Below are positions 1-50,954 of a stretch of 64,000 nt of DNA, in pieces (within the stretch, counting starts at the first letter, position 1; every line of letters starts with the position of its first letter). Under the pieces are notes generated by a model. The model saw only the letters and a program-made list of their open reading frames with translations, searched no databases and was not told the origin of the DNA. Source of the DNA: a virus (lineage: Duplodnaviria; Caudoviricetes); the IMG/VR virus record IMGVR_UViG_2832410175_000003, positions 64,001 through 128,000 of that record; one strand, 5' to 3'. Both the position numbers and the translations under genes were made by a program.

Positions 1-15
1 TTTCAAACGTAAAAT

Positions 16-3000
16 GTGAATTTGGAAGGAGAAAACATAATGAAAGTAAAGGTACCGTTCGGGTTTGATTCTGTTGGCTACATCGAAGTAGAGGCGACCA
101 ACCGTGAAGACGCATTCGCGAAGGCTCGTGATATCCTCGCGGAATCCGATCTGAGTGAATGCGTAAGCATGGCAGAACCGCTGTGGGATTCTATTGATGC
201 TGACGATGAAGGGTTGATTCTTAACGAAAACGGCGAGATCGTTATGAACTACTAAGGAAGGAGTACAAATCATGGGATATTATGCAAATGGCAGCGGTTT
301 CGCAACTCTTAAAAGAGATGCGGATATTACAGAATTAAAGGACAAACTGGATGCGCTCGATGTCCGTTTTGATTGGAACATCGACAAAGACAGTGTAGAT
401 TTCTACGAAAGCGATAAGTACTATGAAGACGAAACCATTGAGTTTCTTGACACCTTAGCACCGTATGTCGCAGAGGGTGAAGCAAATTATATCGGCGAAG
501 ATGGTTGTATTTGGCGTTTCCGCTTCGACCCAGATGAACAGGAATGGGTTGAAGAAACCGCCACGATTGACTACAACTTCGAGTCTTATACAGACGAGCA
601 GATGATCGAAGAATTGGACAGACGCAGCTATCTCGTACAGAAAAAGCCGCAGAGCAACTAAGAAAAGGAGAGTATATCATGGGAAACAGAGCAATCATCA
701 AAGGCGTCGGTACTAACATCGGCGTATATGTTCACTGGAATGGCGGGTACGATTCGGTACTCGCCTTTACTCAGTATTGCAAGCTGAAGGGTTACCGCAG
801 CCCTGAAAGCGATCCTGCATACGGTACGGCACGACTCGCACAGGTAATCGGCAACTACTTTGGCGGTAGCTGCTCGGTCGGTATTGAAAACATGAGCGGC
901 ACGACCGTTATGACGCCCGAGCTTGTCAGTGAATTATATCTTGACAATGGCGTTTACGAAATTGAAAAATGGAAAATTGTGAAGCATTGGAATCCCAATG
1001 TGATCGCTCTCGAAAACGAGTCCCATGAGGGCTACGACCTCACCGAAATGCTTTGTGCAATCGACGAATGCCAGCCGAAACAGGAGCAGCTTGGCACGGA
1101 ATTCATCACGGCTGAACTGGTAGACCCGAAAACGCTCAACCTCTATGATGAGGTTTTCATTCAGGATTTTACCGGCAAGGTTGAAAAGCATACCGTTGTA
1201 GGGTTTGCCCCGGCAAACACAAAGATGAACGGTCATTACGTAAGCAACCTGCCATTCATAGATAAATGGGGCGCTCCCGACTACGAAAACAATATAAACA
1301 ATTACCTGACGGACAAACTCGTCAGAAAAGCAAAGAAAGGGGAATAAATATGGGATTGGATATGTACTTAATGAAAGCTCCTCGACTGGACAGCGTAACA
1401 ATTCAACAGGTATGTGCTACTGAAGAATGGTTCGGCTACTGTAAACGGCCGAACGAATATAGGACTTCTTCTTTTGAAGAATGGTGCGGCGCAAGCCAAG
1501 ATGATCTTCCTTCGAAAAAAGTCATGGAATTGCTTCGTCCGTACTATGTCGAACGGTTTGCAAGTTGGGACACAAACCATGTATATCCGCATAGTGACAT
1601 TATCCAGAATGTTGGCTACTGGCGAAAAGCAAACCAGATTCACAGATGGTTCGTCGATAACGTTCAGGCCGGCGATGATGACTGCGATTATCACGAAGAA
1701 TGCACGAAAGGTATCCTTGAAGAGCTGCTGAGAACCTGCAAACGAGTGCTCAATTCTTCGAATCCTGTGTCGGAAGCGAAAAGATGGCTGCCGGTTCAGG
1801 AAGGATTTTTCTTCGGCAGCTACGAGTACGACGAGTGTTACTTCGATGACCTCCGACACACTGTCGAAGTCATTGAAAATGTTCTCGCAACCACAGATTT
1901 TGATAACGAAATGCTCTATTATGTGAGTAGCTGGTAAGAAGGAGGTGTCAAACATGACTGAATACCGCCACGAAGCAGTTGAGGTTTGCCCTCATTGCAT
2001 GGGAGAAAACACGGTGCCCGACTGGGCACCGGAAGACGGCTGGCGCACAACCTGCAAGCATTGCGGTGAACGAATTCTCTTGTGTGATGAATGCATCCAC
2101 AGGGAAGACAATCCGAGAGCGTTTTGCGATTGGGGTAATGGCCGCTGCTTCCGTGATATGGGCAACGACCCGATGGTTGAATGGTTCGAGGTTATCCGGA
2201 AGGGTGTAGGTCATGACCGCAACGCAGCTTACTGGTCAGATATCCAAGGAGAAATCCTTTGTGCAACCGAAGGGTTTGCTGAGTTGATGGCAGACCGGAT
2301 TGAAGAGCTGTACAGAAAACAGGGCGAAGAAGTGATGCTCTCTACCGGCTACTATGACCCGGAGGAAGATAAACGCAACCATGAAGAAGATGAATACACC
2401 GGTTGGTGGTATGTTGAAATCATCTAAATACGTGTTTCATAGGAAAGGAGAAATAATTATGACAGTATATGTACTTACAGTAGAAGATGAAGTTGTTGGT
2501 GTCTTCAATAAATACATGAAAGCATATGATATTGGATGTTCAAAATATAATGGAGACTTTGATATTGAAGAATTTGAAGTCGAATGACCTTACGTTGCTG
2601 TTTCCAAGAGGAGCTGAAATCTACGCTCCGGATGGGAACGAACGAGCAGAATGGAAAATTATCAACGAATCGGAGGATTCTGATGTAGAAGATCTCTGGG
2701 ACAATCTAACCGATATTCCCTTTAACCCCGAAACAGAAGAACTTGACGAACCTTATTACATCTGGCCAAAAGGAACCAACAAGGAAGATATTTGGTCTTG
2801 GTTCGATGAGCATCACAGCAAGGGCGTTGCATATCTTCTGGGATTCGCAGACTAAATAGTTAAGAGGTGAGATATTTATGACACTGATGGAAAAACTCGA
2901 AGCAGCCGGTTATCCGCGAGAAGAGATGTACCATCACGAATCTGATCTCTATGTGTTCCTCACTCCACTGACCAAGCGAGTGATTGACGAATGGTTCAAA

Positions 3001-5570
3001 GAAGAGGGTCTCACACGAAGCCTGTTCGTCAGCACATTCAGAGATCAGATTACTGGTAAGCCGATGTATGATGTTGCTTTCCAGTACACGCCAGCGTTTA
3101 ATCAAAGAATTTGATATTCAAGGAGAGTGCATAGTAATGTATTTCAAAACAGTCTGGGGCTTTAGCGGAACTGATGAGCAGAAGGATCTGCAAAAAGAAC
3201 AGCTCCGCGACGTGCTGACGAAGTTAGGCGCTGATGTAACGATAGACGATGTTGATCTCGACGGCGAAAAGGCGTTCGTGATCACCATCGAATCGTGAAG
3301 CGGGTATCTGAAAGGAGAGAAGACTATGAAAATCGAAGAAAAGATTGAGGAAATCCGCAAGCTCGTAAAGGAAATCAATTCCTACGATGATCTCCTCTTT
3401 ATGTATGAGGGCGACCGTATTGATCTTGAATGTGCAAAGTACGATTTGTGGGAGCTTCTGCAAGACTTATAAACGCAAAACAAGAGTCTCATAAGGAAGG
3501 AGAAAAATAAAATATGAAAATAAATGATAGATATGAAATTAGAGTGGTTGTAGTAGAACGGAAAGATGGAACTACTGGTGATGCATATGATAATTTCGAA
3601 GATTTCAAAAGAGAGCATCCTTTCAGTTCATATGAATTTGGATACGTAGTCTTTGATACTGAGTATGGATATGTTCCAGATAGTTGCAATGATTGGAATG
3701 ATAGTCCAGAAGAAGCAATGTTTGATTATGAGGAAAATTGTAAATGAAAGAAACGATGATTTCAAAAGTGGATTAAGAGGTGCAAAATGAGATTACCACA
3801 AGAAATATTTGCAGAAGCATTATGGGTAGAATGGTTTATTACTCACGGTAGTGTTCGTAAAAAGAAATTACCGGATTTATTAAGAAAGTATAATTTAAAA
3901 CTCAAAAAAGAGAAGACCTTAGATGATGTTATATTATCAATAGGTAGAGCTTTTAAAAATACTTCTTGTGTTTCTTCTAAGCAAAGAGAACGCATTGCAG
4001 AGGAAATAGACAAGGTTTGTATCATAGCTAACTGGGAAGATGCAGTTGCAAAATATAAGAAGTCCTGATGTATCCAACTCGCACAGATGTTAGAATTGCA
4101 AACGATTTCAGTCAAGATCGATATTCGAACGTTAGGAATAAGCAAACAAGAGTTTGGAGGTGATAAGATGGGACGAAAAAAGAAACAGCCAGAAGAGTAT
4201 CGTCTTCTGCCGGACGGTCAGATTTCGATGCGCTGCGGTGTTCCAATGCCGAGAAAATATCTCCGACCGAATCAAGAAAGGGTTGACAAGCTGGTTGCCA
4301 ATATGGTTGATTATGCAATCAAATGCCAAAACGAATATGTGATAAAAGAATTATCCGACATGATTAGGGAGCCGAATTTCGATAAGGCGATGGAGCATTT
4401 TCAGAATGTGTCTGACATGAACGCATATTTTGAAAGGCTGTTAGCTATCGTCAATCCCTCAGTGTATGAGGAAATCAGCAAAGAAAACGGCAATCCAGAC
4501 CAATAAAACGATGAACAGAGAGGAGAAAACACCATGGATGGAGCTTTCCAGAACAAATGCTTTGGCCTACCCGATGATTTTGATTGTGATAGCTGTCATT
4601 ACAACGTTGGTTTTCAAACCGGCTGGGGCGGTGTTGTAGGTCCTTGCGGACAGCAGAATTGCTGGTACTCCTGCACAGCTTGTATGTATAACAACGGCGG
4701 TGAATGCTATGCAGAAGATATAGTTGAAGACGGCGATGAATAAATACGATTGGGAGGTGACTCTACATGATCAAAAACAGATACTGCAAGCGATGCGGCC
4801 ATAAAGTCAAGCGAGAAACCACGAAGGGATTACGGAAAGAATATCCGTATTATTGCCCTTATTGCGACGAGAACATGTACAGGTTTGAGACTGTGAAACA
4901 TCGTTCTGAGAAGACGAATGGAGTGGAAATCAGAGTTTAAGATTTTCACAACAGCATAAAGCGAATGTTTGGATAAAATTCGTTTCCGGAATATATATAT
5001 AGAGAGAAAGAAACAAATAAAGGAGAAAAAAGATATGAAGGATGAGCTTTGGCAGTATATTTTGGATAATTTTACAATTGATAATGATGGAAGAAAGATA
5101 ATCTGCAATATCCTTGACTGGATTTGGCTTCAGTCGATTGATAAAGAAGATACAGTTAATACATTACTGATCCTTTTAGATGGAATTGGTATCGAAAAGG
5201 AAGAGATTGAGAAATTTGTTAACTGGGATTAAGCAATAAAGTGCGTATTGGGCATGAAAACGATGTTTAGGAGGTAATTATGAATTACATTGCATTACAA
5301 AAAGCTCAGGAAGAGCTCAATCTCACGCCAGCAGAAAAGGAACGCTACGACACTCTGACTGCAATGCACCATCTCGTAATGTGCATGAACGATGAAACTG
5401 CATACATGACGTGGATTTGGTCAGTTCCAGATGAAGCAAGCGCATATGACCTTGCCGATATTGCTAAGGAAAAGGACGAGTTTGACGGTGTCGTAAGACT
5501 TTTCAAAAAGCTCTGGAAGAAATACGCCGCAAGCGATTCCGGTTTATGCATCGGAAGAACAACCTATTAA
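16..5570 (+). other. Array of ~18 small hypothetical phage ORFs (e.g. 272-661, 679-1347, 1350-1937, 1954-2427, 2878-3114, 3514-3747, 3787-4068, 4168-4506, 4534-4743, 5035-5232, 5280-5570)
   Basis: Tightly packed + strand ORFs, mostly preceded by AGGAG/GGAGG RBS; no recognisable domains. Confidence 0.8.
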
Positions 5571-5625: not shown

Positions 5626-5649
5626 ATATCCAAATAGGAGGTATACATC

Positions 5650-6345
5650 ATGAATAATAACATCAAGGAAAAAATCGCAAAGCTCCTCGCACTGGCAGAG
5701 TCCCCGAATGAAAACGAAGCGAAAGCCGCTCTTCTCAAGGCTCGCGCCCTCATGGCTCAGCATAAGCTCCGTCCGGAAGAGTGCACCGGCAAAAAAGAAA
5801 AGGTCGTGACCAAGGTTCTTGCCGATATCAAGTGCACGACCATGACCGACTTCTGGATTTACAAGCTGAGCGACGTGATCGCCAAGCATTATTGCTGCAA
5901 GAATTACTGCCGCAAACCGCCGCGCAGCAAGGCACTCACGATTATTTTGATGGGTCTTGAAAGCGATATTGAAATCGCCGAGCGCATCCTCCGCTACGCA
6001 ATTGACTGCGTCAAGAGGGAACAGCGCACCATTCATCACACGAGAAAGTGGCAGGGTTACAGCGCAACCGATATCCGCCTTGCCTGCAACGCTTACGGCG
6101 ACGGCTTCGTTGCCGGTCTCGATCAGGAATACCAGAAGCAGGACGCCGAGCATCAGGAGTGGGGACTGGTCATGATGACGCCGAAGGATGTGCAGGACGC
6201 CTATGGCAATCTCAGCATGAAAACGAGCACGTCTCATGCAAGAACCGCCGGAGCCTGGGCGAATAAGTACCGCGATCAGGGTGTAGAGCACGGACGTTCT
6301 TTCAAACCTGACCAGCGCCTTCACAATACCGCAATCGCAAGATAA
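5650..6345 (+). CDS. DUF2786-domain protein
   Basis: N-terminal IKEKIAKLLALAESPNENEAKAALLKARALM is typical of DUF2786. Confidence 0.75.
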   Translation: MNNNIKEKIAKLLALAESPNENEAKAALLKARALMAQHKLRPEECTGKKEKVVTKVLADIKCTTMTDFWIYKLSDVIAKHYCCKNYCRKPPRSKALTIILMGLESDIEIAERILRYAIDCVKREQRTIHHTRKWQGYSATDIRLACNAYGDGFVAGLDQEYQKQDAEHQEWGLVMMTPKDVQDAYGNLSMKTSTSHARTAGAWANKYRDQGVEHGRSFKPDQRLHNTAIAR

Positions 6346-8367: not shown

Positions 8368-8769
8368 ATGAACGACAGAGACATTCGCCGCGGCGACATT
8401 TTTTACATCAAGAATGACGACAACGCAGTAGGCTTCGAGCAGAAGAAAACCCGACCGGCAATCATTGTATCCAATAACGCCAACAATCGCGCTTCCGGCG
8501 TGGTAGAGATCGTGTATCTTACCACATCGCAAAAGCATCGTCCGCTTCCGACTCACATTCGAGTTCGCGGTTACGTTCCGTCCATTGCTCTCTGTGAGCA
8601 GGTTGTGACGGTCGATGTGAGCCGCCTGATGGAGCGAATCGGCTCCTGCAGCTACGATGAAATGGAGGCGGTCAATTGCGGACTGGCGGTTTCGCTTGGG
8701 TTAAAGAGTGTAAATAGTTACTCGTATCAGCAGGTTAGAAGTGAAAAGCCGTGGTTATTTGCCAAATAA
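8368..8769 (+). CDS. PemK/MazF-family endoribonuclease (orphan)
   Basis: RRGDIF, EQKKTRPAIIVSN, LTT, CEQVVTVD motifs. Confidence 0.85.
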   Translation: MNDRDIRRGDIFYIKNDDNAVGFEQKKTRPAIIVSNNANNRASGVVEIVYLTTSQKHRPLPTHIRVRGYVPSIALCEQVVTVDVSRLMERIGSCSYDEMEAVNCGLAVSLGLKSVNSYSYQQVRSEKPWLFAK

Positions 8770-10106: not shown

Positions 10107-10934
10107 ATGGCAGCGGAAGTAATTAAACTTTATCAGGACGAGAACGTAGAGCCGTTGCAGAACATGACGAGGTATGCAGCGATTGACTACAATCTCCTTG
10201 CCTCCGCTCTGGCTGACGAAATGGAGCGCCGCCAGAAGGCAGAGCAGGCTCAGAAGAAAGCCGCCAGAGCAGAAGCCTCGGTCAAGCGCCGTACAACAGT
10301 CGGCGCGAACGGTACGGTCGATCCCATCCGCAACAAAGAAGACATCCTCAAGATTGCACAGTATTTCTACGACAAAGGTCAGCTTCGCAACGCACTGATG
10401 TTTCTCATTGGATGCAGTATAGGTTTACGATGTGGAGATCTCTGTAAGGCTAAAATCGGGGATATTGCAGAAGACGGTAAATGCCGCTTAAAAGAAGAAA
10501 AAACCGGTAAGTACAGGACAGTAGTGCTTAACAATTTTGCAATGCAGTGCTACCGTGAATTAGTGGCTTCGATTCCAAATCACACGAATGAAACACCACT
10601 GTTTATCTCTCAAAAAGGGGAAAATCAGAGTATTGAGCGCGGCTCGTTCGGCCGTATCCTCCGAAATGCCGGCAAGGATTTGAATCTCCCGTACAAGCTC
10701 GGCACGCATAGCATGAGAAAAACGTTCGGTTATCACCTGTTCATGGATAACCAGCAGTCGCCGGAGATTCTGGCGTATGTGCAAGAGATACTCAATCATA
10801 CAAGTGGGAGGACAACGCTTCGTTACATCGGTCTGGACGAAGAAAAGAAAAACAAGCTGTACGAGAACCTCGACTACGGCTTCACACTGGATGATATCAA
10901 AGGCAAAGACATTACAGAGAACGAGGAGAAGTGA
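10107..10934 (+). CDS. Tyrosine recombinase (phage integrase family), catalytic residues intact
   Basis: GLRCGDL, EEKTGK, HSMRKTF, LNH...TLRY. Confidence 0.9.
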   Translation: MAAEVIKLYQDENVEPLQNMTRYAAIDYNLLASALADEMERRQKAEQAQKKAARAEASVKRRTTVGANGTVDPIRNKEDILKIAQYFYDKGQLRNALMFLIGCSIGLRCGDLCKAKIGDIAEDGKCRLKEEKTGKYRTVVLNNFAMQCYRELVASIPNHTNETPLFISQKGENQSIERGSFGRILRNAGKDLNLPYKLGTHSMRKTFGYHLFMDNQQSPEILAYVQEILNHTSGRTTLRYIGLDEEKKNKLYENLDYGFTLDDIKGKDITENEEK

Positions 10935-15082: not shown

Positions 15083-15086
15083 AAAT

Positions 15087-15162
15087 GGGGGAGTGGTGTA
15101 ACGGTCAGCACATTGCGTTTCTAACCCCAAAGGAGTGAGTTCAAGTCTCACCTTCTCCATCA
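15087..15162 (+). tRNA. Atypical tRNA, anticodon ambiguous (TCT Arg or CTA/TCTA)
   Basis: Good acceptor, D and T arms; anticodon arm TTGCG-TTTCTAAC-CCCAA; ends A-TCA. Confidence 0.6.
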
Positions 15163-16898: not shown

Positions 16899-18175
16899 TT
16901 CACAGAGAAAAGTATTTCCTCGGCGGCTTAATCGCCGTAATGATGGCACTCGGATTGACTGCATGCGATGTACAGCCTGCGGCAGCGGGCTTCGAAGACT
17001 CAACCAGTCTGCAGGCAAAATTCATAACAGTTTACGAAGCTGTGGATTACAGCATTGTGTATAACGCAGCAAATCGAGTTATGTATTCGGTGGTTAATCA
17101 CAATAGAGGAGCGGCCGGGGTTTTTACCCTGTTGGTTGACGAAAACGGTTCCCCAATGATTTGGAAGGGCTGATCCCATGAGTAAAAGCGTATATCTGGC
17201 TGCCTCCATTCTGGTTTTATTCCTGTTGGCGGCAACCGCAGTAAGTGTTATTTGAGGTGAGTCATTATGAAATCTGAATTTGGCATCTTAGGCGATGGCG
17301 AAAAGCACACGGTTACAGTTCTCGTCGATGGTTTCCGGTTATTCAAGATCGAAAATCCAGAGATTGAAGTAACTGTTGATAAGACAGAAGCCGTAAAGCA
17401 AATCGCTCCGGGCGTTTTTGAGAAAAAAATACTCGCAGACTCCGTTATTGCCAAAGTAGAAATCAAGGGCAGAATTGACATGACCACAGAGATTACGTTT
17501 GGAGGCGATTAAAGTGGAGCTTGGAAATGTCGCGTTCGACAGAATGGATCATTGGGGTGGCAATACGGAACTCTGGTTCTTCGCACCATCGGAATTATTT
17601 CCAAATCCTCCGGAAAGGATGCGTCGTGTGGTTCTCCAAATCACTTATCCGCACAGGATTATTCCTCATGCGAGGTATCGCCGGTCGGAAATAGAACTTG
17701 TTGCATTGGATTATGCAGATTATTTTTTGGCTGCGGTTGATTTTTCAATTACGGAAAAGTTTTTTAACCAACTCATCGAGTTAGCGGTAAGGGAGGTAAT
17801 TTGAAAGTGGACTTTCATGTAGGTGAGTATGTAGAACTTCTCACAGGAGAGTGTGGCTATATTAGCGATGTGAGTTCATTCCATGATATCACAGCTGAGT
17901 TGGGGATGGTGCTTACAATCAGCCTGATTTTTCCGGAGAGCATGAAGGGTGCCGAGATAAAGGTAAAGGTCAAACACAACGAATCGGTTTACGACCATTT
18001 TGCTCAAATCGGTTGCAGTAGGTTTCCAAAAGCAAAGGTTTCTTGCGAACCGATTAAGACGATTAACTTCGACGGCGTTTTTCTTGATACGGCCGAGCGT
18101 ATGCTCGCGCAGAAGGTAGACGAGTTAGTCGACGCAGTCAACAAAATCAACAAACAGTTAGCGAAGGAGCGATAA
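16895..18175 (+). other. Small hypothetical ORFs, including a lipoprotein (16895-17173)
   Basis: LTAC lipobox; packed ORFs with RBS. Confidence 0.65.
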
Positions 18176-18177
18176 AA

Positions 18178-18522
18178 ATGGCAGAGAAGAAACCCACGTT
18201 CTACATGATGGTCGGCGTGCCGGGTTCCGGCAAAACCACCTACGCCCGCCAGATTCCGAATGCAACCGTGCTCTCCAGTGACGATATCCGTGCTGAGATC
18301 GGAGCAGACGGCGGCGACAAGAAGATGCACAAGCAGGTCTTCGATATCCTGCATGAGCGCACAAAGGAAGCACTTTCCGCTGGCAACGATGTTGTTTACG
18401 ATGCAACGAATCTGCGTCATACGCGCCGCGCCGAAAGAGTTCCTGATGATGCAGTTCATGGGGCTCTGCGAGGAAGCCTCTCGTCGGCCGCAGCCAATCA
18501 AGCTGAGAATGATTCGCTATGA
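18178..18522 (+). pseudogene. Truncated polynucleotide-kinase-like AAA_33 protein
   Basis: MVGVPGSGKTT, SSDDIR, VVYDATN then family-like sequence ends after ~86 aa. Confidence 0.65.
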
Positions 18523-18606
18523 AGAAGAATGGAATCAGCTTGAGCAGCAGGTCAAACGGCTCGAGTTCAGCATTGAGTTCCGCAACAACAAATTCGGAGG
18601 CTGATT

Positions 18607-18714
18607 ATGAGAAGACAAACGTTAAATCGACTGGGCGACATCGCCGCAGGGATGCTCTTCGGCGCAGTAATGCTTATTCCGATGTTCCTCTACATTTGGG
18701 GCTACGGTGTATGA
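18607..18714 (+). CDS. 35-aa membrane peptide
   Basis: GGAGG RBS; MRRQTLNRLGDIAAGMLFGAVMLIPMFLYIWGYGV. Confidence 0.6.
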   Translation: MRRQTLNRLGDIAAGMLFGAVMLIPMFLYIWGYGV

Positions 18715-19142
18715 GCGGCGAGATTTTCCAATCGTTTCCGAATTTCACCCAGAATATGTGGAATGGAAACGAACCGAACTGCAAGGGTCATGATATGGTC
18801 GGCGGCGGGCAATCGCAGAAGTGGACATTCCGATACGGCAATGCAGAAACCTTTGAAGACCGTATCCTGTGTGCCAGCTTCAGCCTAAGCCCAAAGGTAA
18901 CGATTTCAATCGTCGGTGACACGCTGAATATCTTGGATTTTCGTTACAGCGGAAAATTCGACGAATGGAGTTACTGTAATAAGCCGACCGGCCGTATTCA
19001 TGAAACATTTATGGCTGCTCACCAGCACGAACTGGAGCCTGAGCGGATAGAAAAATACCTGAACACAAACATCTCAGACTGTAAAATTTGGGATATGATT
19101 CAGGCAAGAGCAAAAGAATTGTACAACCAAAGTCAAGTTTGA
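18711..19142 (+). CDS. Hypothetical protein
   Basis: ATGA overlap with upstream gene. Confidence 0.6.
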   Translation: MSGEIFQSFPNFTQNMWNGNEPNCKGHDMVGGGQSQKWTFRYGNAETFEDRILCASFSLSPKVTISIVGDTLNILDFRYSGKFDEWSYCNKPTGRIHETFMAAHQHELEPERIEKYLNTNISDCKIWDMIQARAKELYNQSQV

Positions 19143-19157
19143 GAGGAGAACGAGTTT

Positions 19158-20327
19158 ACGAAACATCTGGGAGATATCACAAAGATAAACGGCCGCGAAG
19201 TTCCGGTCGTTGATTGCGTCATCGGTGGCAGTCCTTGCCAAGATGTTAGTATCGCAGGATCTAAAGCGGGATTTGGTTTCCGCCTGTTCCCATGCGGGCT
19301 TGGAGTGTCGGCACACGCTGACCGCATTCTCTGATGACATCACAGGCGTGCGTCATATCAAGAATTATGCAGTCTTCGACTGGATCTCCAACGCTAGCCG
19401 CAGATACTCCGGAAGCTCCTTCTTGTTTCGTTCTGCTCTCTTCAGAATTCCCTGACACGCCTTTGCGCTCAAAAAGTATCTCGGGAGCGGATTCTCCTCC
19501 AAAATCTGCGACAAGTGCGATTCTACGGCGACTCTGGGGGACTCCCCAAAACTGTGCATTGAGTACGCGCCAAGCGATACTCCATCCGTCTCCCATGACG
19601 CATCCGGCAGTTCTCCATTTGCCCTTCGGAGGTTCAGGAATAACGGCATTTGGTTCGACGATCCTCGCGATTTCTTCGAGGACTCGTCGGAAATCTTCTC
19701 CTTTGTGGCTGCTGAAAGCTCCGACGACGTTTTCCCATACCATGTATCGAGGACTTGCTGTCCCTGAAGCTGCTTCACTGTGTTCCCTCATTTCTCTTAC
19801 AAGTCGTGTCTGTTCGAAGAAAAGAACTGATCGCTTCCCCTCAAATCCCGCTTTTGTTCCGGCCGGTTTGCGTAGGAAATGGACAGGCACACATTGCGAC
19901 ACATCTCACGCCGGATGTGTGCCAGACACTGAACTGCATGCACGACCCAATGGCGGTGATTGAAGTAAAGCCAGGCAGGGATAAATTCATTCGACGGCTG
20001 ACGCCACTTGAATGCGAAAGATTGCAGGGATTTCCGGATAACTGGACTGACATCGGAGAATGGATAGACTCAAACGGGAAGGTACATAAGGAGAGCGCAA
20101 ACACGGGGCGATACAAGGCAATGGGAAATTCGATTGCGTTGCCGCCCTGGCGATGGGTGCTTAGCAGACTGTATAAACAGTTTGACCGGCCGGCAACGAT
20201 GGCAAGCCTGTTTGATGGAGTTGGAGGTTTCCCTCTGATCTGGAGAGAGCTCGGGGGCGAAACACTGTGGGCAAGCGAAATTGAAAGCTTTCCAATAGAG
20301 GTCACCAAGAAACGATTTTCAGAATGA
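19158..20327 (+). CDS. Circularly permuted C5-cytosine DNA methyltransferase interrupted by an internal inversion (19263-19854)
   Basis: + strand KHLGDITKING..GGSPCQD; - strand ENV and QSRRR motifs; + strand RRLTPLECERLQGFP, MGNS, SLFDGVGG; flipping restores a 389-aa frame; start codon ACG. Confidence 0.85.
19263..19854. repeat. Inverted segment bounded by perfect 13-bp inverted repeats
   Basis: AAAGCGGGATTTG (19263-19275) / CAAATCCCGCTTT (19842-19854). Confidence 0.9.
19365..19778 (-). CDS. Nested out-of-frame MTase beta-subunit-like protein
   Basis: GAGGG RBS + GTG; LSQILE..P.PRYFLSAKACQGILKRA; similar nested ORF in the second MTase. Confidence 0.65.
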   Translation of the reverse strand: MKQLQGQQVLDTWYGKTSSELSAATKEKISDESSKKSRGSSNQMPLFLNLRRANGELPDASWETDGVSLGAYSMHSFGESPRVAVESHLSQILEENPLPRYFLSAKACQGILKRAERNKKELPEYLRLALEIQSKTA

Positions 20328-20342
20328 TTTAGGAGTGAGTGT

Positions 20343-21170
20343 ATGAGCAAGTATATTGAGCGAGAAGCAGCAATTATGAAGGCTGAAAAATATGGACTTG
20401 GATATGGCAGCGTGCTTGGACGCCATTCCGGTATTGCCGATTGTATAGCATCAGAGATTGCGACTTTGCCTGCCGCCGACGTTGTGCCGGTGGTACATGG
20501 ACGGAGGTACAGAATAATGCGAAATCCGTGCAAGGACTGTATCTACTACCACAAAGCGAGTCAAACTTGCCAGTCGAAGAAATGTGCTACGGGCAACGAC
20601 GGAAAAGTATCTTGGAATGACAGGATGTTTTGTTCTCCGCGAAAAGATGAATGGAGGCGCAGACAATGACTGAAGTGATTGGGCAGAAAACCGTTAAAAT
20701 ACGGAAAGACCATATGTGTTTTGGCTGCGGACGAAATTTTCATAAAGGAACTTTAATGGAACGCAGTTGCGTAATTGATAGCGACGGTATATGGACCTGT
20801 TATCTATGCCCCACTTGCAAAAAAATTTCCGCTTCGCTGAAATACGGCGATGAATTTGGTTTCGGTGAACTACGGGAAGAAGCTTTAAAAAAGGACGGAG
20901 GTGCGGACAATGGCTGAGTATCATGTTGGCTGTGGCGCTTTTGGCATCTACGCAGGAACACTTGAGCCAAAGAACAAATCCTTGTGGCGTAATAAGTCAG
21001 ACGTTACAGAAGAAGCGATTGAAGCTGTTCGTGACCATATGGTGATGGAACTACTTGGTGGTTTTGGTTGCTCTAAAGCGTCCTCAAGCGGATGGGCGTG
21101 GAAACTCAAAGATGGTCGAACGGTTGAATTGCGCGTGACGATCAAGGAGGAAAACAATGGCGATAAGTAA
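20343..21170 (+). other. Three small hypothetical ORFs (20343-20669, 20666-20917, 20910-21170)
   Basis: Overlapping start/stop codons; CxxC motifs. Confidence 0.65.
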
Positions 21171-21870
21171 GAAAATCCGCGAAGAAGTATACCGCAAATA
21201 CGACGGACACTGTGCTTATTGCGGAAGAGAGATGGCATACAAAGATATGCAAGTAGATCATTTTCTCCCACTGAGGGCATGGGGAATTGAAGATGCGGGA
21301 ACAGATGATATTTCGAATCTCATGCCGTCCTGTCGAATGTGTAATCATTACAAGAGAGCCAATACGTTGGAAACATTCCGGCGCTATATCGCAGAAATTC
21401 CGAGAAAGCTGCGTGAAAATTACATCTATAAGGTTGGCGTAGTTTACGGGAATGTGATCGAGAACGAAAAAGCGATTGAGTTTTACTTTGAGAAGCAGAA
21501 AAGTACAACTCATTGGAAAAATGGTGCGAAAATGGCTGAATACATTAACCGTAAAGCTGCGTTTGATGCTATAACCGATCTTGCAGGGAAAGCCCCGACG
21601 CGCTCAGCTTATGAAGCTATATGGAAATCAGCGAGAGTGTTGAAGAAAATCCCTGCCTCCGACGTTGTGCCAACTTCACAGGAGAGAATCTACAAAGATC
21701 TTTTAGATGCTCTGTTTGAAGACGTCAGAAGTCTTGATACCACGCTAGCCGATGAGTGCTGTATGTGCAGCAAAGGGGAATGCGACGACTGCAATTTGCG
21801 CACATTTGAGGACGAACTATTAGCAATCCTCGGACGCGCGTCCGAGAGGAAGAAACGAGTTACAGACTGA
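21157..21870 (+). CDS. HNH endonuclease fused to a second small phage ORF
   Basis: CAYCG..VDHF..NLMPSCRMCNHYK; internal MAEYINRKAA resembles a separate gene start. Confidence 0.8.
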   Translation: MAISKKIREEVYRKYDGHCAYCGREMAYKDMQVDHFLPLRAWGIEDAGTDDISNLMPSCRMCNHYKRANTLETFRRYIAEIPRKLRENYIYKVGVVYGNVIENEKAIEFYFEKQKSTTHWKNGAKMAEYINRKAAFDAITDLAGKAPTRSAYEAIWKSARVLKKIPASDVVPTSQERIYKDLLDALFEDVRSLDTTLADECCMCSKGECDDCNLRTFEDELLAILGRASERKKRVTD

Positions 21871-22151: not shown

Positions 22152-22943
22152 ATGATCGGCACAATTATCGGAGATATTGTCGGCTCACGATTCGAGTACG
22201 ATAACATTAAAACCAAAGACTTTGAGTTGTTCACGGATGACTGCCACTTCACCGACGATACAGTTCTGACAGTTGCTGTCGCAGGTGCATTGTTAGACGG
22301 TGGCAGACCAAGTTATTCACAATTACAGAAGAGAACAAGAGTGTGGCTGCGCGGTCTTGCAAAGAAGTACCCCGCCGCAGACTATGGCACACGGTTTGAA
22401 GATTGGGTTAATAGCAAATCCGATGAGCCGACCAACAGCTATGGGAATGGAGCTGCGAGTCGAATTTCTCCTGTCGGCTTTGTTACCGCAAGCCGTGAAC
22501 AGACGATAACGCTCGCGGATACGATTACCGGCGTAACGCATAATCATGTTCACGCGCTCATTGGTGCCAGCGCGGTGGCTGTGTCAACGTATTATGCGCG
22601 AATCGGGTGGCCAAAAGAGCAGATCAAGAAACACATCAACGAATATTTTTACCAAATGGACTTCACTCTGGATGAAATTCGGCCAACGTATTCGTATTCT
22701 CTGGCGTGCTGGGATACCGTCCCGCAGGCGCTCGAAGCGTTTTTTGAATCGACCAGTTTTGAGGATGCTATCCGCAACGCGATTTCAATCGGTGGTGATA
22801 GCGATACGATTGCCGCAATTACCGGCGGTGTAGCCGAAGCATACTATGGCGTGCCGCAGGAATTAAGAGAAAAGGCCGAATCTTATCTGGATGAACGACT
22901 TCTTCGTGTTATCCATGCCTTTGAAAACCTATTTGAACGATGA
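22152..22943 (+). CDS. ADP-ribosylglycohydrolase (DraG/ARH family)
   Basis: GDIVGS, TDDT, SYGNG, TH, GGDSDTIAAITG. Confidence 0.92.
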   Translation: MIGTIIGDIVGSRFEYDNIKTKDFELFTDDCHFTDDTVLTVAVAGALLDGGRPSYSQLQKRTRVWLRGLAKKYPAADYGTRFEDWVNSKSDEPTNSYGNGAASRISPVGFVTASREQTITLADTITGVTHNHVHALIGASAVAVSTYYARIGWPKEQIKKHINEYFYQMDFTLDEIRPTYSYSLACWDTVPQALEAFFESTSFEDAIRNAISIGGDSDTIAAITGGVAEAYYGVPQELREKAESYLDERLLRVIHAFENLFER

Positions 22944-44769: not shown

Positions 44770-47220
44770 ATGCTAAAAATCCAGAAGAAAGATGGTTCTA
44801 TCGAAGCGTTCTCCAGTCAAAAGATCGTTTCCGCGATTCGTAAGTCCGCTAATCGTGCTATGTATGACCTGTCCGATGAACAATGCCGCCGCGTTGTTGA
44901 TTTGACGTTGACTCACCTTGCAGAGCATGGCGGGGACGTTGCTCCGGTTGCAAACGTACACAATGCAGTCGAGAGAGCTCTGGACGATGTAGCTCCAGAT
45001 GTGGCCAAGTGTTATCGCGATTATCGCAACTACAAGCAGGATTTTGTCCATATGCTCGATGATGTCTACCGCAAGAGTCAGGCAATTCGTTATATCGGTG
45101 ACCGAAATAATGCCAACACGGATTCCGCTCTGGTTCCGACTCAGCGTAGTTTGATTTACAATGAGCTGTCCAGTGCATTGTATAAGAAATTCTTCTTGAA
45201 TCGAGAAGAGCGCGAGGCTATGAAAGACGGTTACATCTACATTCATGACCGATCTGCACGACTTGACACGATGAATTGCTGCCTTTTCGACATGGAGAAC
45301 GTCCTAACTGGCGGCTTTGAGATGGGCAATGTCTGGTACAATGAGCCAAAGACGCTTGACGTGGCGTTCGATGTTATCTCCGATGTTGCAATCAGCGCGG
45401 CCGCTTGTCAGTATGGCGGATTCACCATCCCTGAAGTAGACAAGATTTTGGCTCCTTATGCCGAAAAATCGTACCAGAAATACTTTGAGGAGTACACAGA
45501 AATTGCGGTTTACAACAATCTTGGCGACCACGAGGATGTACTGACCGCCGCCGATGAGTATGCTGTGAAGAAGGTTCAGCGTGATATGGAACAGGGATTC
45601 CAGTCTTGGGAATATCGTTTCAACACGGTTGGTTCCAGTCGCGGTGATTATCCGTTCATTGCGGTTTCGTTTGGTCTTGACAATTCTCGCTTCGGCCGAA
45701 TGGCATCCATGACTTGTATGAACGTTCGAGCAGGCGGACAGGGAGCTGCTGGGCATAAAAAGCCAGTGCTGTTCCCGAAACTGACGTTCCTTTATGATGA
45801 GGAGCTTCATGGAGAAGGGAAACCGATGGAAGACGTCTTTGAGTGTGGAGTAGATTGCAGTACCAAGGCCATGTATCCAGATTTTCTTTCGTTGACCGGC
45901 GAGGGCTATATTCCTTCTATGTATAAGAAGTATGGCCGTGTCGTGTCACTCATGGGTTGAGAAAAGCACCGTAGCCCATGTAAAATTCCGCGAACCTGCA
46001 AATGCAGGGTGTGAGGGCGGCGTTTAGTGTGAGTAGGAAATGACTCGTTAACGTCCTTGCTAACAGGGAAGGCTTGTGAAAGCAAGATAATCGCTGTGCT
46101 ATGAAAATGTGAAACGACTACCGAAAGGGTATCTGAGGCGAAAGTAGGGTTGCCTCAGAGAGTAACCGAGTAGGGTACACAGTAGGTGAGAATCCTGCTG
46201 TGGAAGCGCGGAAAGCTGACCTAACAGCTATGATATAGTCTGAGCGGCATAGTCCGCTTGTGCAGAGCTTCGCTCTCGCCTTGGTTTGAACGAGGAGGAG
46301 AGCACCCAGAAGACGAGAACGACAAGCCCGTCTTCGTTGGCCGATTTAATCTCGGCGCAATTTCCCTTCATTTGCCGATGATTTTGGCAAAGTCCCGTCA
46401 GGAGAACCGCGACTTCTACGAGGTGCTTGACTACTACCTCGAGATGATTCGAAATCTCCATAAGAAGACCTACGATTATCTGGCCGAGAAGAAGGCTTCT
46501 ACCAATCCACTTGGTTTCTGTCAGGGAGGCTTCCTTGGCGGCCATCTTGAACCAGAGGAGAAGATTGGCAAGCTGCTCCCGCCAATGACCGCATCATTCG
46601 GTATTACTGCTTTGAATGAACTGCAGGAGCTGTATAACGGCAAGTCTATCGTCGAGGATGGCGCGTTCGCGCTGGAAGTGATGCAGTACATCAACAAGAA
46701 GGCCGAGGAGTTCAAAAGGGCAGACCACATTCTGTACGCTCTCTACGGAACGCCGGCCGAATCCCTTTGTGGATTACAGATTGAACAGTTCCGCAAGAAG
46801 TATGGCATCGTAAAGGGCGTATCCGACCGACCGTATGTATCGAATAGCTTCCATTGCGGTGTTTGGGAGAACATCACTCCGCCGCAGAAGCAGGATCTCG
46901 AAAATCGCTTCTGGGATTTGTTCAATGGCGGCAAAATCCAGTATTGTCGATACCCGGTATCTTACAACAAAGGTGCCCTCCGTTCGCTGATTCGCCGAGC
47001 GATGAAACTGGGATTCTACGAAGGCGTAAACCTGTCGTTGGCGTACTGTGAGAAGTGCGGGTATGAACAGCTTGATATGGATGTCTGCCCGAAGTGCGGA
47101 TCGACTGACGTCACAAAGATTGATAGGATGAATGGCTATCTTGGTTATACTCGTGTTCACGGCAAGACACGATACAACGACGCTAAGAACGCAGAAATCA
47201 AAGACCGCGTCAGCATGTAA
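44770..47220 (+). CDS. nrdD: Anaerobic ribonucleoside-triphosphate reductase, split by a group I intron (exons 44770-45957, 46261-47220)
   Basis: ATP cone, IHD, NCC; spliced MG|CRASL; TPAESL, CxxC pairs, RMNGY glycyl-radical motif. Confidence 0.93.
45958..46260 (+). ncRNA. Group I self-splicing intron (303 nt, no ORF)
   Basis: 5' exon ends in T, intron ends in G; P7 pair GACTA (46116-46120) / GATATAGTC (46232-46240); P9 hairpin AGCGG..CCGCT; removal restores frame. Confidence 0.88.
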
Positions 47221-47230
47221 GAGGTGAAGC

Positions 47231-47734
47231 ATGAATTATCATAACATTACCAAGGATGACATGCTGAACGGAACCGGCCTGCGTGTCGTATTATGGGTAT
47301 CGGGGTGCGCTCATGCGTGCCCCGGTTGCCAGAACCCACAGACGTGGGAACAGATGTCTGGTATCCCATTTGACAAAGAAGCGATGGACGAGATTCGTGT
47401 AGAGCTTCAGAAAGATTATATCGACGGAATTACACTGTCTGGCGGTGACCCTCTGTTCCCGGGTAATCGTGGAGCGGTAACTCGCTTGCTCCAGACAATC
47501 CGTGAAGAGTTTCCGGATAAAACCATTTGGCTGTATACTGGCTATTCGTATGAGCAGGTATGCACTTTACCTGCTGTGGAACTGGCCGATGTCCTTGTCG
47601 ATGGAGAATATCTGGAGACCAAAAGAGACGTAAACGCGCCGTGGGTCGGAAGTACCAACCAGCGCGTAATTGATATTAAAAAGACCGCGACGAGCGGGAA
47701 AATTACCTTGTGGGAGGACAAACATTGTATTTAA
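47231..47734 (+). CDS. nrdG: Anaerobic RNR activating enzyme
   Basis: GCAHACPGCQN radical SAM motif, GGDPL, GSTNQRVI. Confidence 0.95.
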   Translation: MNYHNITKDDMLNGTGLRVVLWVSGCAHACPGCQNPQTWEQMSGIPFDKEAMDEIRVELQKDYIDGITLSGGDPLFPGNRGAVTRLLQTIREEFPDKTIWLYTGYSYEQVCTLPAVELADVLVDGEYLETKRDVNAPWVGSTNQRVIDIKKTATSGKITLWEDKHCI

Positions 47735-48240
47735 CCGTAGCAGAATTTGACACCGTGAGCTATCCGCAGTTCACGGCAGACGTAAAAAAATGCAACCCGC
47801 TCATTTCGGAGGGTTGCATCGAAGATATGTGGCGCGACCTTGTTTTCCCTGATCGCGCGACTGAAGGCAGTGCAGGATATGACTTCCGCGTGCCGTATGA
47901 CATTATCCTTGAACCGGGTGAGTCGGCACTGATCCCGACCGGTATGCGCTGCCAGATCGAAGAAGGCTGGGTGCTGATGCTGTTCCCACGTTCCAGTATG
48001 GGCTTCAAGTACCGTATGCAGCTTGATAATGGCACAGGTATTGTGGACGGGGACTACATTTTCGCCGAGAACGAAGGTCACATCATGGCAAAGATTACGA
48101 ACGACAGCCGCGAAGGCAAGACAATGCACCTGCGAGCGGGTGACCGATTTATGCAGGGCGTGTTCGTTCCTTACGGCGTCACGGTTGATGACGAGCCAAG
48201 AGGGAAGAGAACCGGCGGCCTCGGCTCCACTGGCAATTAA
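47725..48240 (+). CDS. dut: dUTPase
   Basis: SAGYD, PRSSMG, GIVDGDY, RTGGLGSTG. Confidence 0.92.
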   Translation: MYLTVAEFDTVSYPQFTADVKKCNPLISEGCIEDMWRDLVFPDRATEGSAGYDFRVPYDIILEPGESALIPTGMRCQIEEGWVLMLFPRSSMGFKYRMQLDNGTGIVDGDYIFAENEGHIMAKITNDSREGKTMHLRAGDRFMQGVFVPYGVTVDDEPRGKRTGGLGSTGN

Positions 48241-48284
48241 AAAGAGACGTCGAGGTACCTTCTCAACGTCTCGGTGGCAGCCAG

Positions 48285-48380
48285 TTACTTGTTGCCAAAG
48301 AACTTTCGCTCAATCCAGAACCATGCACCCGCCGAAGCGATGCCGATTATGAACTGAACTACCATTAGTTGCAGTGACAT
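48285..48380 (-). CDS. 31-aa hydrophobic peptide, type I toxin-like
   Basis: MSLQLMVVQFIIGIASAGAWFWIERKFFGNK; TTGACT-N18-TATAAT promoter; SD sequestered in CTCCTTT-TTCG-AAAGGAG hairpin; terminator near 48241-48272. Confidence 0.7.
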   Translation of the reverse strand: MSLQLMVVQFIIGIASAGAWFWIERKFFGNK

Positions 48381-48605
48381 GAGTTTCCTCCTTTCGAAAA
48401 AGGAGAATAGCAAATTGATCCGTATTACCAAAGGCCACCAACGGCATTATACTGCAGTGGATAGCGAATAGTCAAATAAAAAGAGCCGGCTCACTAACAA
48501 TTACAACAACGTGCTCGCGACTGCCTTAAAGATCGCAAACAACAAAGAACAGCGATTCAAGAAGAAAAAAGGAGCGGCTTTGCCGCTCCAAGCACCGAAG
48601 AGACT

Positions 48606-48716
48606 TCAGGTAAGCTGTTCAATGAAGAATTTCAGCGCGCCCCAAAGGGCGGCCGCAAGCACTCCATACGCTACCGTAGCAGCGGAACAGCAAACTTTAG
48701 ATCGAAAGTCTCTCAT
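48606..48716 (-). CDS. 36-aa hydrophobic peptide, type I toxin-like
   Basis: MRDFRSKVCCSAATVAYGVLAAALWGALKFFIEQLT; AAGGAGG RBS; TTGACG-N17-TATGAT promoter; GGAGCGGC-aaa-GCCGCTCC-T6 terminator. Confidence 0.65.
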   Translation of the reverse strand: MRDFRSKVCCSAATVAYGVLAAALWGALKFFIEQLT

Positions 48717-48881
48717 AGTAACCTCCTTTTACAGAAGGCGACGCAGTCGAGTAGGTAAGAGACTGCGAAAATCCGCCGAATTGCGGGTGATTCTGGTGGT
48801 GCAATACCAATCATACCGCGTTTTCTAAAATTCGTCAAGGTTCGCTGTATCCGTAAAAAAAAGGCACCCGAAAAGGGTGCC

Positions 48882-49172
48882 TCACCTATTGGGATGGATA
48901 TACCACACGCCCTCGGGCGTTTTCCAAACCTTCGTCCGATGATTGCCGATTTTAACCCCGTACTCGGTAGCACGAAGGTCTTTATTGAACATGCAGCCGG
49001 TGACGAGACGTATACGATAGCCTTTGTTGAGATAGCTTATCAGCTCTGGTTGTGATGTGTGCGGATTGAGTGTCACACTAACTTCGGCAAACCCTGCGCG
49101 CTGTTCAATCGGCGGCAGAGTAACCGGAGAATACTTTGCATATGCGGCGTTGCCGCTGATGGGGTCGTACAT
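48882..49172 (-). CDS. Hypothetical protein, predicted SOS-inducible
   Basis: GAGGTG RBS; terminator at 48855-48882. Confidence 0.7.
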   Translation of the reverse strand: MYDPISGNAAYAKYSPVTLPPIEQRAGFAEVSVTLNPHTSQPELISYLNKGYRIRLVTGCMFNKDLRATEYGVKIGNHRTKVWKTPEGVWYIHPNR

Positions 49173-49189
49173 AGTATCACCTCAAACCC

Positions 49190-49218
49190 ATTATAGAACA
49201 AATGTTCGATAAAATCAA
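49190..49218 (-). promoter_or_regulatory. SigA promoter with LexA box in the spacer
   Basis: TTGATT-N17-TATAAT overlapping CGAAC-ATTT-GTTCT (49195-49208). Confidence 0.82.
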
Positions 49219-49319
49219 GCGTACAATTAAATAAAGGTTTAGGGCGCTTCGCACCCCATTTTTTTCGAATTATTGTAAACCTTATAAAAGTATGCTATTA
49301 TAAAGAAAGGTTCTAATAG

Positions 49320-49526
49320 ATGAAAACTTATAAATTGCTGACTGCCGATGAAGTGTCCAAGTCATTAGGCGTTTCGGTGTCCTATGCTTATAAGATTATC
49401 CGCCAGTTGAATGATGAACTTCAAAATCAAGGGTATCTTACAATACATGGGAAAATCGATTCGTCATATTTTCAGAAGCGGTTCTTCCCCTCTTTTGGGA
49501 AGGAGGATATTTATGCCTCAGTATAA
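49320..49526 (+). CDS. xis: Excisionase-like HTH protein
   Basis: EVSKSLGVSVSYAYKIIRQLNDEL..GYLTIHGKI..YF..RF; overlaps int. Confidence 0.75.
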   Translation: MKTYKLLTADEVSKSLGVSVSYAYKIIRQLNDELQNQGYLTIHGKIDSSYFQKRFFPSFGKEDIYASV

Positions 49527-50622
49527 GTACACTACAAAAAAAGGAGTGAAGTGGTACTCAAAGTTCAACTATCTCGATGCTCAAACTAATAAGTTTGTAA
49601 CTACGCTGAAACGCGGATTTTCATCAAAACGAGAGGCGAGAGCGTTTGAAGAAAATTTTTTGGATGAACTAGATTCTCAGTCTCAGTCTTCGACAACGCA
49701 TACCATAACGGATATTTATAACGAATATCTTTCTTCGTTTAAGCGTTCGGATATGAAACAGTCTACTCTGCAGACCAAACACAACATATTTGCCAGCTAT
49801 ATCGCTCCGTATTTTGAAGGCATCCCAGTTGAAGAAATTACAGCCGCAGACATCGCCGCATGGCAGAAAAATGTCAAGGAAACAAAAAAGTCAAACGGTC
49901 AGCCGCTTTCTCCGGCTTATCTGCGAACGGTACAATCTCAGCTCAACGCTTTGATAAACTATGCAAGTGGCAAAGGGTATATTTCTATCAACCCTCTGGT
50001 TGACATCAAGAACATGGGAGTGAAAGGTAGACGACTTCTTTTCTGGAGTTACGAAGAATATGAAAAGTTTGCATATGAAGCTATGAATTTTCCAACTTAC
50101 TATTATGCTTATGAAGTCTTATATTGGTGCGGCATTCGAGAAGGCGAATTACTCGCTCTCACGCGCGAAGATATAGACTTAGACAATCAAACGATTCGCA
50201 TCAATAAGACATATAGCCGAGTTGGGCGAAAAGACATTATCACAACTCCTAAAACACAAAGCTCCGTAAGAACGATTAGCATTCCTCGATTTCTTTGTGA
50301 TGAATTGACGGAATACTTTGCAATGAAGTATGATTTAACGCCAGACCAGCGTATCTTTGTTTTTACAAAGCACGGATTATCGAGCAATTTCCATTCTTTG
50401 ATTGCAAAAGCTAATGTCCCAGATATGCCAATCCACGGATTGAGACATTCTCATGTGTCCCTTCTTATCAGTAAACAATATAACATTTTTGAAATTTCAA
50501 AACGTATTGGCCATAAATCCATCAGTACAACACAAGATATTTACGGCCATTTGTTTGACAATGTTCAAAAAGCTATTGCGGACGATCTCAATTCAATGAG
50601 GAGTGTTAGAACGGATGTCTAA
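49513..50622 (+). CDS. int: Tyrosine integrase with arm-binding domain
   Basis: KRGFSSKREA, GIREGELLAL, PKT, HGLRHSH, RIGH..TQDIY. Confidence 0.95.
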   Translation: MPQYKYTTKKGVKWYSKFNYLDAQTNKFVTTLKRGFSSKREARAFEENFLDELDSQSQSSTTHTITDIYNEYLSSFKRSDMKQSTLQTKHNIFASYIAPYFEGIPVEEITAADIAAWQKNVKETKKSNGQPLSPAYLRTVQSQLNALINYASGKGYISINPLVDIKNMGVKGRRLLFWSYEEYEKFAYEAMNFPTYYYAYEVLYWCGIREGELLALTREDIDLDNQTIRINKTYSRVGRKDIITTPKTQSSVRTISIPRFLCDELTEYFAMKYDLTPDQRIFVFTKHGLSSNFHSLIAKANVPDMPIHGLRHSHVSLLISKQYNIFEISKRIGHKSISTTQDIYGHLFDNVQKAIADDLNSMRSVRTDV

Positions 50623-50947
50623 GAAAAACTGCGATAGAGACGGTCGCGTGAGGACAAAAACATGTGCGTTTCGCGTTTCACCCAAAGAATATGAACAGAT
50701 CGAACTAGCTGTTTCTCTCAGTGGAATGATGAAACAAGATTACCTTCTAAATAAGGCGCTTGATCGGCAATTTGTCATCCAAGGTAATTGTAAGGTTCAC
50801 CGAGCTGTTTGCGATAGACTCGACGCTTTGTTGGTGAAGCTACAAGCATTAAACGACCTGAACGGATACAATGACTATTTATCCGCTGATATAAAAATGA
50901 TTGCTCAGCTAATAAAGCAACTGTATTCGTCGGGCGACAGTGAATAA
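50615..50947 (+). CDS. MobC-like ribbon-helix-helix protein
   Basis: CAFRVSPKEYEQI..SGMMKQDYL..IQGN. Confidence 0.6.
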   Translation: MSKKNCDRDGRVRTKTCAFRVSPKEYEQIELAVSLSGMMKQDYLLNKALDRQFVIQGNCKVHRAVCDRLDALLVKLQALNDLNGYNDYLSADIKMIAQLIKQLYSSGDSE

Positions 50948-50954
50948 CTTCTTC

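Follow-up and report, generated by a model that had tools for sequence, protein, structure and literature searches.

A 592-bp segment (19263-19854) that forms part of a predicted phage gene for a DNA cytosine (C5) methyltransferase undergoes an inversion that is real and recurrent and that, judged from the state of its alleles, is apparently reversible. The gene lies in a window of 64,000 nucleotides, by which we mean the whole stretch of DNA analysed and to which all coordinates refer unless stated otherwise; it represents positions 64001-128000 of the 175,415-bp IMG/VR record IMGVR_UViG_2832410175_000003, classed as a provirus, and holds the gene in its broken (OFF) state. That a recurrent, apparently reversible inversion switches the predicted methyltransferase ON and OFF is a reading to which we assign a probability of about 0.8.

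A segment found in both orientations within one gene

A first-pass annotation of this DNA had described a gene whose two ends are encoded on the + strand and whose middle is encoded on the - strand, with perfect 13-bp inverted repeats at the points of change, and this description has been confirmed in each of its parts (Table 1). Specifically, motifs III and IV are encoded up to 19262, motifs V to VIII follow on the - strand, and the remainder of the target recognition domain (TRD) together with motifs IX and X resumes from 19855, while the two repeats are exact reverse complements located at the strand-switch points. Also in agreement with the annotation, the frame deposited from 19158 stops after 58 codons, and reverse-complementing 19263-19854 produces a stop-free frame from 19143 to 20327 that comprises 389 codons when counted from 19158. 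Perfect 13-bp inverted repeats within 1.2 kb are not rare by chance (131 of 2000 shuffles); the significance of these repeats is their position exactly where the strand switches, combined with the opposite orientation in relatives and breakpoints inside the 13 bp. As an inverton should be, the segment is thus bounded by inverted repeats that contain its breakpoints, the strand-switch joints sharing the 13 letters, and neither the 13-mer nor its reverse complement has a third copy in the whole 175-kb record.

Initial comparisons uncovered only the un-inverted arrangement outside the window. Six close relatives in IMG/VR possess a contiguous, un-inverted gene, and when five relatives were compared over 44-56 kb each, the segment of ~600 bp was the sole strand-switched block. 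Contigs of four pig-gut runs, belonging to four studies, displayed strand-switch joints at 19262/19854 and 19263/19855 relative to the window and are un-inverted, and among the sequencing runs searched none exceeded 24% of the sampled words. In IMG/VR and JGI, 0 contigs contained the diagnostic inverted junction, against 5 (IMG/VR) and 10 (JGI) with the un-inverted one. On the strength of the IMG/VR, JGI and four-run results, a one-off event or an artefact was initially favoured, an interpretation that was dropped after further inverted contigs and identical haplotypes had been found.

Those inverted alleles were sought by exact look-ups of open reading frames (ORFs) created solely by the inverted state, namely a 176-aa product ending ...GGNQIPL* and a separately called C-terminal piece. 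The 176/160-aa product with this ending belongs to a cluster of 46 distinct sequences. ENA and Logan assemblies yielded 33 further inverted contigs (L219-L222, plus 29 loci reached from four products of the cluster); every one of the 33 fetched contigs is inverted, and they derive from different runs, studies and assemblers and measure up to 150 kb. L219 is 100% identical to window positions 19202-19918 and crosses both junctions, and L220, L221 and L222 cross the right junction. The ends of L219, 61 and 64 nt outside the repeats, resemble those of a graph bubble and are at most suggestive of coexisting states. The un-inverted order is represented by at least one isolate genome, that of Butyricicoccus sp. 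AM28-25, in which the protein RHT78819.1 extends across both junctions. A 188-aa variant from another sample (P0181, protein cluster 5) fuses ...GGNQI straight to EEFPIAVTKRRFGQ and looks like another rearrangement, a deletion, in this gene.

The evidence for recurrence comes from haplotypes shared between orientations. Three un-inverted products (P0123, P0140 and P0143) were picked for their identity to flipped translations of inverted haplotypes, and their contigs were fetched. Among 24 distinct haplotypes of 1185 nt, four occur in both orientations with zero nucleotide differences, in different samples, and an inverted contig (L246) differs from an un-inverted 258-kb scaffold of another sample (L252) by one single-nucleotide polymorphism (SNP) and the flip over 3466 nt. 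A second property of invertons, the presence of both orientations on one genetic background, is accordingly observed over 1185 nt in four haplotypes and over 3.47 kb in one pair. On a gene tree from which the repeat columns were removed, orientation changes 12 times; branches with strong support force at least 9 of these changes, and none of the bootstrap trees is compatible with a single origin of orientation. The first-pass annotation had proposed an invertible switch and had taken the view that a single orientation in reads and related genomes, with no conservation of the repeats, would speak for a one-off rearrangement; related genomes hold both orientations, including the four identical haplotypes, and together with the changes on the gene tree this supports a switch over a one-off event or an artefact.

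Table 1. Features of the invertible methyltransferase gene and the candidate recombinase (window coordinates)
Feature	Position	Strand	Remarks
Tyrosine recombinase, 275 aa, candidate invertase only	10107-10934	+	PF00589, phrog_216
GAGGAG Shine-Dalgarno-like element	19143-19148	+	Read from the sequence; immediately 3' of the TGA (19140-19142) that closes the upstream ORF
ACG where the family has an ATG start (putative initiation site)	19158-19160	+	
5' part of gene: motif III (GDIT), motif IV (catalytic PCQ)	19158-19262	+	PF00145 profile positions 43-79; M.HhaI 58-112
Left 13-bp inverted repeat AAAGCGGGATTTG, inversion breakpoint	19263-19275	+	Strand-switch joints share 13 letters
Invertible core in OFF orientation: motifs V, VI (ENV), VII, VIII (QSRRR), start of TRD	19276-19841	-	
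Premature TGA ending the + strand frame in the inverted state	19332-19334	+	
137-aa ORF, +1 relative to the methyltransferase frame, contained entirely in the segment	19365-19778	-	
Right 13-bp inverted repeat CAAATCCCGCTTT, inversion breakpoint	19842-19854	+	Exact reverse complement of the left copy
3' part of gene: rest of TRD, motif IX (RRLTPLECERLQGFP), motif X (GNS), then motifs I-II (MASLFDGVGGF...ASEIE...)	19855-20327	+	PF00145 positions 266-316
Methyltransferase stop codon	20325-20327	+	

Reversibility, mechanism and alternative explanations

Whether alleles found in the OFF state could return to the ON state can be judged from what they have retained. All 28 full-length inverted alleles (27 fetched contigs and the window) are stop-free when flipped and carry a perfect repeat. 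In addition, the private mutations of haplotypes seen only inverted comprise 12 synonymous and 5 non-synonymous changes and 0 stops (n=17), where 77% non-synonymous changes would be expected under neutrality (binomial p ~4e-5, by our own arithmetic). Such a bias indicates that alleles found OFF have evolved under selection for an intact protein, as would be expected if they return to ON, although recombination importing variation from unsampled ON alleles is an alternative source of the same bias. The first-pass annotation had called the inversion 'recent or reversible', and the intact alleles and mostly synonymous mutations lend weight to the second term: the inversion appears to be reversible.

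The sequence of events that we propose is as follows. Recombination within the two perfect 13-bp repeats inverts the segment recurrently and, apparently, reversibly. In the ON orientation a single 389-codon frame encodes a predicted orphan, circularly permuted C5 enzyme with motifs III-X followed by motifs I-II; in the OFF orientation, that of the window, motifs V-VIII lie on the opposite strand and translation ends after 58 codons, and no active enzyme is possible. A site-specific recombinase would probably catalyse the flip, because the event occurs often and 13 bp offers little length for homologous recombination, and each flip would toggle methylation of the phage DNA and give mixed methylated and unmethylated progeny. 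An extended form of this proposal, which we put forward tentatively as somewhat short of an even chance, is a programmed epigenetic switch borne by the phage: a phage or host site-specific recombinase would flip the segment at an appreciable rate, a lysogen or burst would yield both methylating and non-methylating phage, and the mixture would serve as a hedge where some hosts restrict unmethylated and others methylated DNA, with the overlapping gene reoriented as well.

The tyrosine recombinase named in the first-pass annotation as a possible driver (Table 1) matches Xer and FimB/E-type families of NCBIfam far below cut-off. It is also encoded, at 65-89% identity, by five un-inverted relatives, and this makes it a candidate, nothing more. 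The record as a whole encodes three tyrosine and two large serine recombinases, none of them adjacent to the segment, and no phage annealing or recombination proteins are recognisable in the early region. The tyrosine enzymes are the product of 10107-10934, a 403-aa integrase described below and a third one encoded upstream of the window.

Several observations weigh against an inversion that acts as a reversible switch. Firstly, the segment neither contains an invertase gene nor adjoins one. Secondly, the repeat itself bears little sign of having been maintained: it is clade-specific, it drifts as fast as the background and its conservation does not exceed that of the sequence around it; in 33 distant homologues it is absent, the corresponding sites having 5-8 nt; and it can be extended to 19 of 22 matching positions around a core of only 13 bp, and inspection of this 22-nt form by eye revealed no convincing dyad of the kind expected in the core site of a recombinase. 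Sites conserved beyond coding constraint, a third property expected of an inverton, were therefore not found, given the imperfect repeat of 4 of the 24 haplotypes and the 5-8 nt of the distant homologues. The conservation of both repeat copies among homologous methyltransferases, which the first-pass annotation had singled out as informative, hence holds in part: the repeat is perfect in 28/28 inverted alleles, imperfect in some un-inverted ones and missing from the distant homologues. In favour of a role of the repeat in the flip, none of the four haplotypes with an imperfect repeat has been encountered in the inverted state (Fisher p = 0.02, with no correction for relatedness or for the choice of sequences); in the first comparative pass half of the un-inverted copies had a repeat with 1-2 mismatches. 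Thirdly, the choice of three un-inverted products that match inverted ones inflates the apparent mixing on the tree, so that the tree statistics overstate it; the identical pairs are independent of that choice. Similarly, phage mosaicism could explain part of the tree incongruence, but not identical haplotypes in both states. Lastly, the haplotype of the window itself (the window, 4 full-length contigs identical over the gene and 5 partial ones) has so far been seen only inverted, and the evidence for both states consists of contigs across samples, the four runs examined by read-derived contigs having given un-inverted relatives only.

Many of these points are shared by the alternative that survives best, which we nonetheless consider unlikely. 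According to it the inversions recur without being programmed: spontaneous template-switch or short-homology events at a chance 13-bp repeat would knock out the gene, with reversion rare or absent, and the inverted alleles would rise where loss of methylation is favoured, for example under methyl-dependent restriction or where a lysogen can dispense with the gene. A known precedent is the inversion of spacers through template switching at short inverted repeats (PMC8604942), and a repeat that is short, clade-specific and drifting, in the absence of an adjacent invertase and with a sole nearby recombinase that lacks a family assignment and resides in un-inverted genomes too, is what such events would leave. 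An origin of this kind sits poorly with 28 of 28 full-length inverted alleles being intact when flipped and with private mutations so strongly biased to synonymous changes. It is further challenged by the number of distinct haplotypes seen inverted (14) and by the near-equal numbers of contigs per orientation for shared products (8 and 9 for the inverted-type products P0174 and P0175, and 8 and 7 for the un-inverted P0140 and P0123), since near-equal frequencies are hard to reach by rare events at 13 bp in the absence of catalysis or very strong selection.

A single old inversion that left two persistent allelic classes, later scattered over the tree by recombination of the flanks, is very improbable. 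It would accommodate the tree of the inner segment, on which orientation is more clustered and which, being poorly resolved, places 4 changes on its best version and forces just 1 by strongly supported branches. Two long-separated classes would not be expected, however, to lack any fixed difference at 69 variable inner sites, nor to include four haplotypes whose entire gene is the same in both orientations and a pair that differs by one SNP over 3.47 kb, and among the bootstrap trees, those of the inner segment included, none has one origin. An assembly or library artefact, by which the inverted arrangement would exist in no real genome, has next to no chance of being correct, despite the lack of any other inverted junction in IMG/VR and JGI and the four un-inverted runs, because 33 independent contigs traverse inverted junctions and because every assembly k-mer is longer than the 13-bp repeat, meaning that the junction words must exist in the reads.

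The methyltransferase, its start position and its surroundings

The protein encoded by the restored gene is unusual in its own right. The flipped frame and its relatives contain motifs I (FxGxGG), IV (PCQ), VI (ENV), VIII (QxRxR), IX and X (GNS), and the frame ends ...MGNS...DRPAT-MASLFDGVGGF...ASEIESFPIEVTKKRFSE*, with motifs I-II positioned after motif X. In a collinear relative (L002), residues 4-58 align with M.HhaI 58-112 and residues 349-389 with M.HhaI 15-55. Judged by this motif order, the predicted methyltransferase is a circular permutant whose new termini fall cleanly between motifs II and III ('Type B'). Most of the ~40 viral homologues inspected have the identical order (III-X, then I-II), and 80 loci in genomes of gut Clostridia (Oscillospiraceae, Lachnospiraceae, Christensenellales and others; prophage copies in GTDB) are mostly collinear over residues 2-389 and are annotated as generic cytosine methyltransferases only. 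A Megablast search of 18000-21500 against GenBank phages gave no match. An AlphaFold model of an intact relative (mean predicted local distance difference test score, pLDDT, of 59, with the TRD unmodelled) has a catalytic domain that matches HhaI, HaeIII and MpeI; it backs the catalytic fold and is no more informative on the permutation than the sequence alignment. Across the clade the ratio of non-synonymous to synonymous substitution rates (dN/dS) is 0.10-0.21, purifying selection which indicates that the protein has a function, methyl transfer itself being the predicted activity.

Natural permuted C5 methyltransferases have been described as all beginning in the variable region ('Type H'), with Type B not occurring naturally (Slaska-Kiss et al., 2018, PMC5944983), and no later report of natural Type B permutants was found in the literature. 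The family in the window shares with natural Type H permutants (M.BssHII, M.Alw26I and others) and with engineered Type B enzymes the possession of all ten C5 motifs in permuted order (PMC5944983). Unlike the known natural permutants, in which motifs IX-X precede I-VIII and the protein starts in the variable region, it begins between motifs II and III. The gene family is, as such, an abundant natural case of a circular permutation reported to be absent from nature, and should be relevant to methyltransferase specialists, for whom two further unusual traits are described below: a start position at which ACG is conserved, and a long stretch with conservation in two reading frames.

The restored frame has no canonical start codon. 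Distant homologues usually begin with M-K/Q-HLGDITK, and at the codon corresponding to that methionine, 19158-19160, the window has ACG. The same codon is present in 11 of the 12 close alleles first compared and in 27/27 of the full-length inverted contigs fetched subsequently, while L112 and P0126 have ATG at this position. The GAGGAG element lies 9 nt upstream of the codon and is kept throughout the close relatives, including those with a different upstream gene. Between the ACG and the first in-frame ATG, an interval that includes the catalytic Cys, dN/dS is 0.15, equal to that of the rest of the gene, and this indicates that those codons are translated. Consistent with initiation at ACG is the finding that this codon is able to initiate in E. 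coli (bioRxiv 10.1101/063800). One consequence of the ACG is that gene callers shorten the protein to 333 or 353 aa, with loss of the catalytic Cys.

A second coding unit is contained in the invertible segment. The 137-aa ORF in the +1 frame, for which no Pfam family was found, lies wholly within the segment, and a flip consequently reorients it as well. Overlapping motif VIII, and in the +1 frame relative to it, is the peptide (E)S(R/H)LSQILE..KY.LSAKAC.GIL.RAERRGK.LP, present in 144 of 145 loci (in the window, LSQILE..KY.LSAKACQGIL.RAERRGK.LP); downstream of 'ILFE' the +1-frame peptide is better conserved than the methyltransferase frame. In some homologues, L035, L042, L135 and L182 among them, the entire TRD-IX-X-I-II half is encoded in the +1 frame, an arrangement suggestive of split-subunit or frameshift forms of the predicted enzyme.

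Another variation of reading frame was observed in the distant homologues L055 (~5640-5660), L068, L087, L053, L009 and L093, which contain a 4-nt insertion, TAGA (TAGC in L093), directly after the catalytic Cys codon of motif IV, in the context GGSPC-TAGA-QDLSIAG; four of these homologues reside in complete phage genomes with terminal repeats. With the insertion, an enzyme would be possible only through a +1 shift or quadruplet decoding. The window encodes, at 15086-15161, a tRNA with a four-base anticodon, tcta (ARAGORN), which would pair with UAGA and is clustered with tRNA-Gly, tRNA-Met and tRNA-Lys. A BLAST search with this tRNA in five contigs that have a methyltransferase with the TAGA insertion found no similar tRNA.

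Two further observations concern the surrounding DNA. In the relative G004 a block matching record positions 110106-115115 (window 46106-51115) is followed, ~1 kb on, by a block matching record positions 1-4431, and a 403-aa integrase (window 49411-50622) is located near the joint of the blocks. This block order suggests that the phage may be ~116 kb long and that the rest of the record, which includes the two large serine recombinases at 147 and 166 kb, may be other DNA. The early region of the phage also encodes, according to PHROG matches, a MazF-like growth inhibitor (window 8368-8769) and an ADP-ribosylglycohydrolase (window 22152-22943).

Comparison with known systems

Phase-variable DNA methylation is well known in bacteria, where hsdS shufflons, phasevarions and intragenic invertons provide examples. 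Invertible segments that diversify progeny are likewise familiar in phages: the G segment of Mu, inverted by Gin, and the C segment of P1, inverted by Cin, possess an adjacent serine invertase, sites of ~26-34 bp and a function in host-range switching of tail fibres. The segment studied here resembles these in being carried by a phage and differs from them in its target, which is DNA modification and not tail fibres. In a limited literature search, no description was found of a phage that toggles its own protective methyltransferase by intragenic inversion. A frequent flip would make for epigenetically mixed phage progeny, a circumstance that bears on how temperate gut phages fare against classical and methyl-dependent restriction in their hosts, and the system is directly testable, as dozens of public samples hold each state. 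Among the samples with the phage are SRR25701115 and SRR32341693 (inverted), the runs of ERZ28614449 (the un-inverted form of the same haplotype), SRR8506051 and ERZ28659778.

Invertons of restriction-modification and related systems, including Type I hsdS, BREX PglX and DISARM, are comparable in that inversion alters a DNA-methylation gene and generates epigenetic heterogeneity (PMC7672463, PMC9881135, PMC11741434). Those invertons swap specificity cassettes between paralogous copies, have longer repeats and usually have an adjacent recombinase; in place of such a change of specificity, the present case involves a single gene, 13-bp repeats and a plain ON/OFF outcome, with no recombinase adjacent. 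Inversion of spacers by template switching also proceeds at very short repeats, with no dedicated enzyme needed (PMC8604942). Unlike those rare and sporadic events, the same inversion is found here on many backgrounds and at high frequency, with the gene kept intact.

The closest parallels are the intragenic invertons of gut bacteria (Chanin et al., PMC10028968; Nature 2024), in which a coding gene likewise contains the whole of a segment flanked by inverted repeats and is cut short by a premature stop in one of the orientations. There, as here, natural populations include both orientations, and in most cases the invertase has not been identified and is not encoded next to the segment (PMC10028968). 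The differences are that the host of the segment is in this instance a phage genome, that the gene affected encodes a predicted orphan C5 methyltransferase, and that the segment contains a conserved overlapping ORF. The nature of the evidence differs too: the two states of the bacterial invertons were recognised by reads or PCR within one culture, whereas those of the phage methyltransferase gene are recognised as identical haplotypes in both states across samples.
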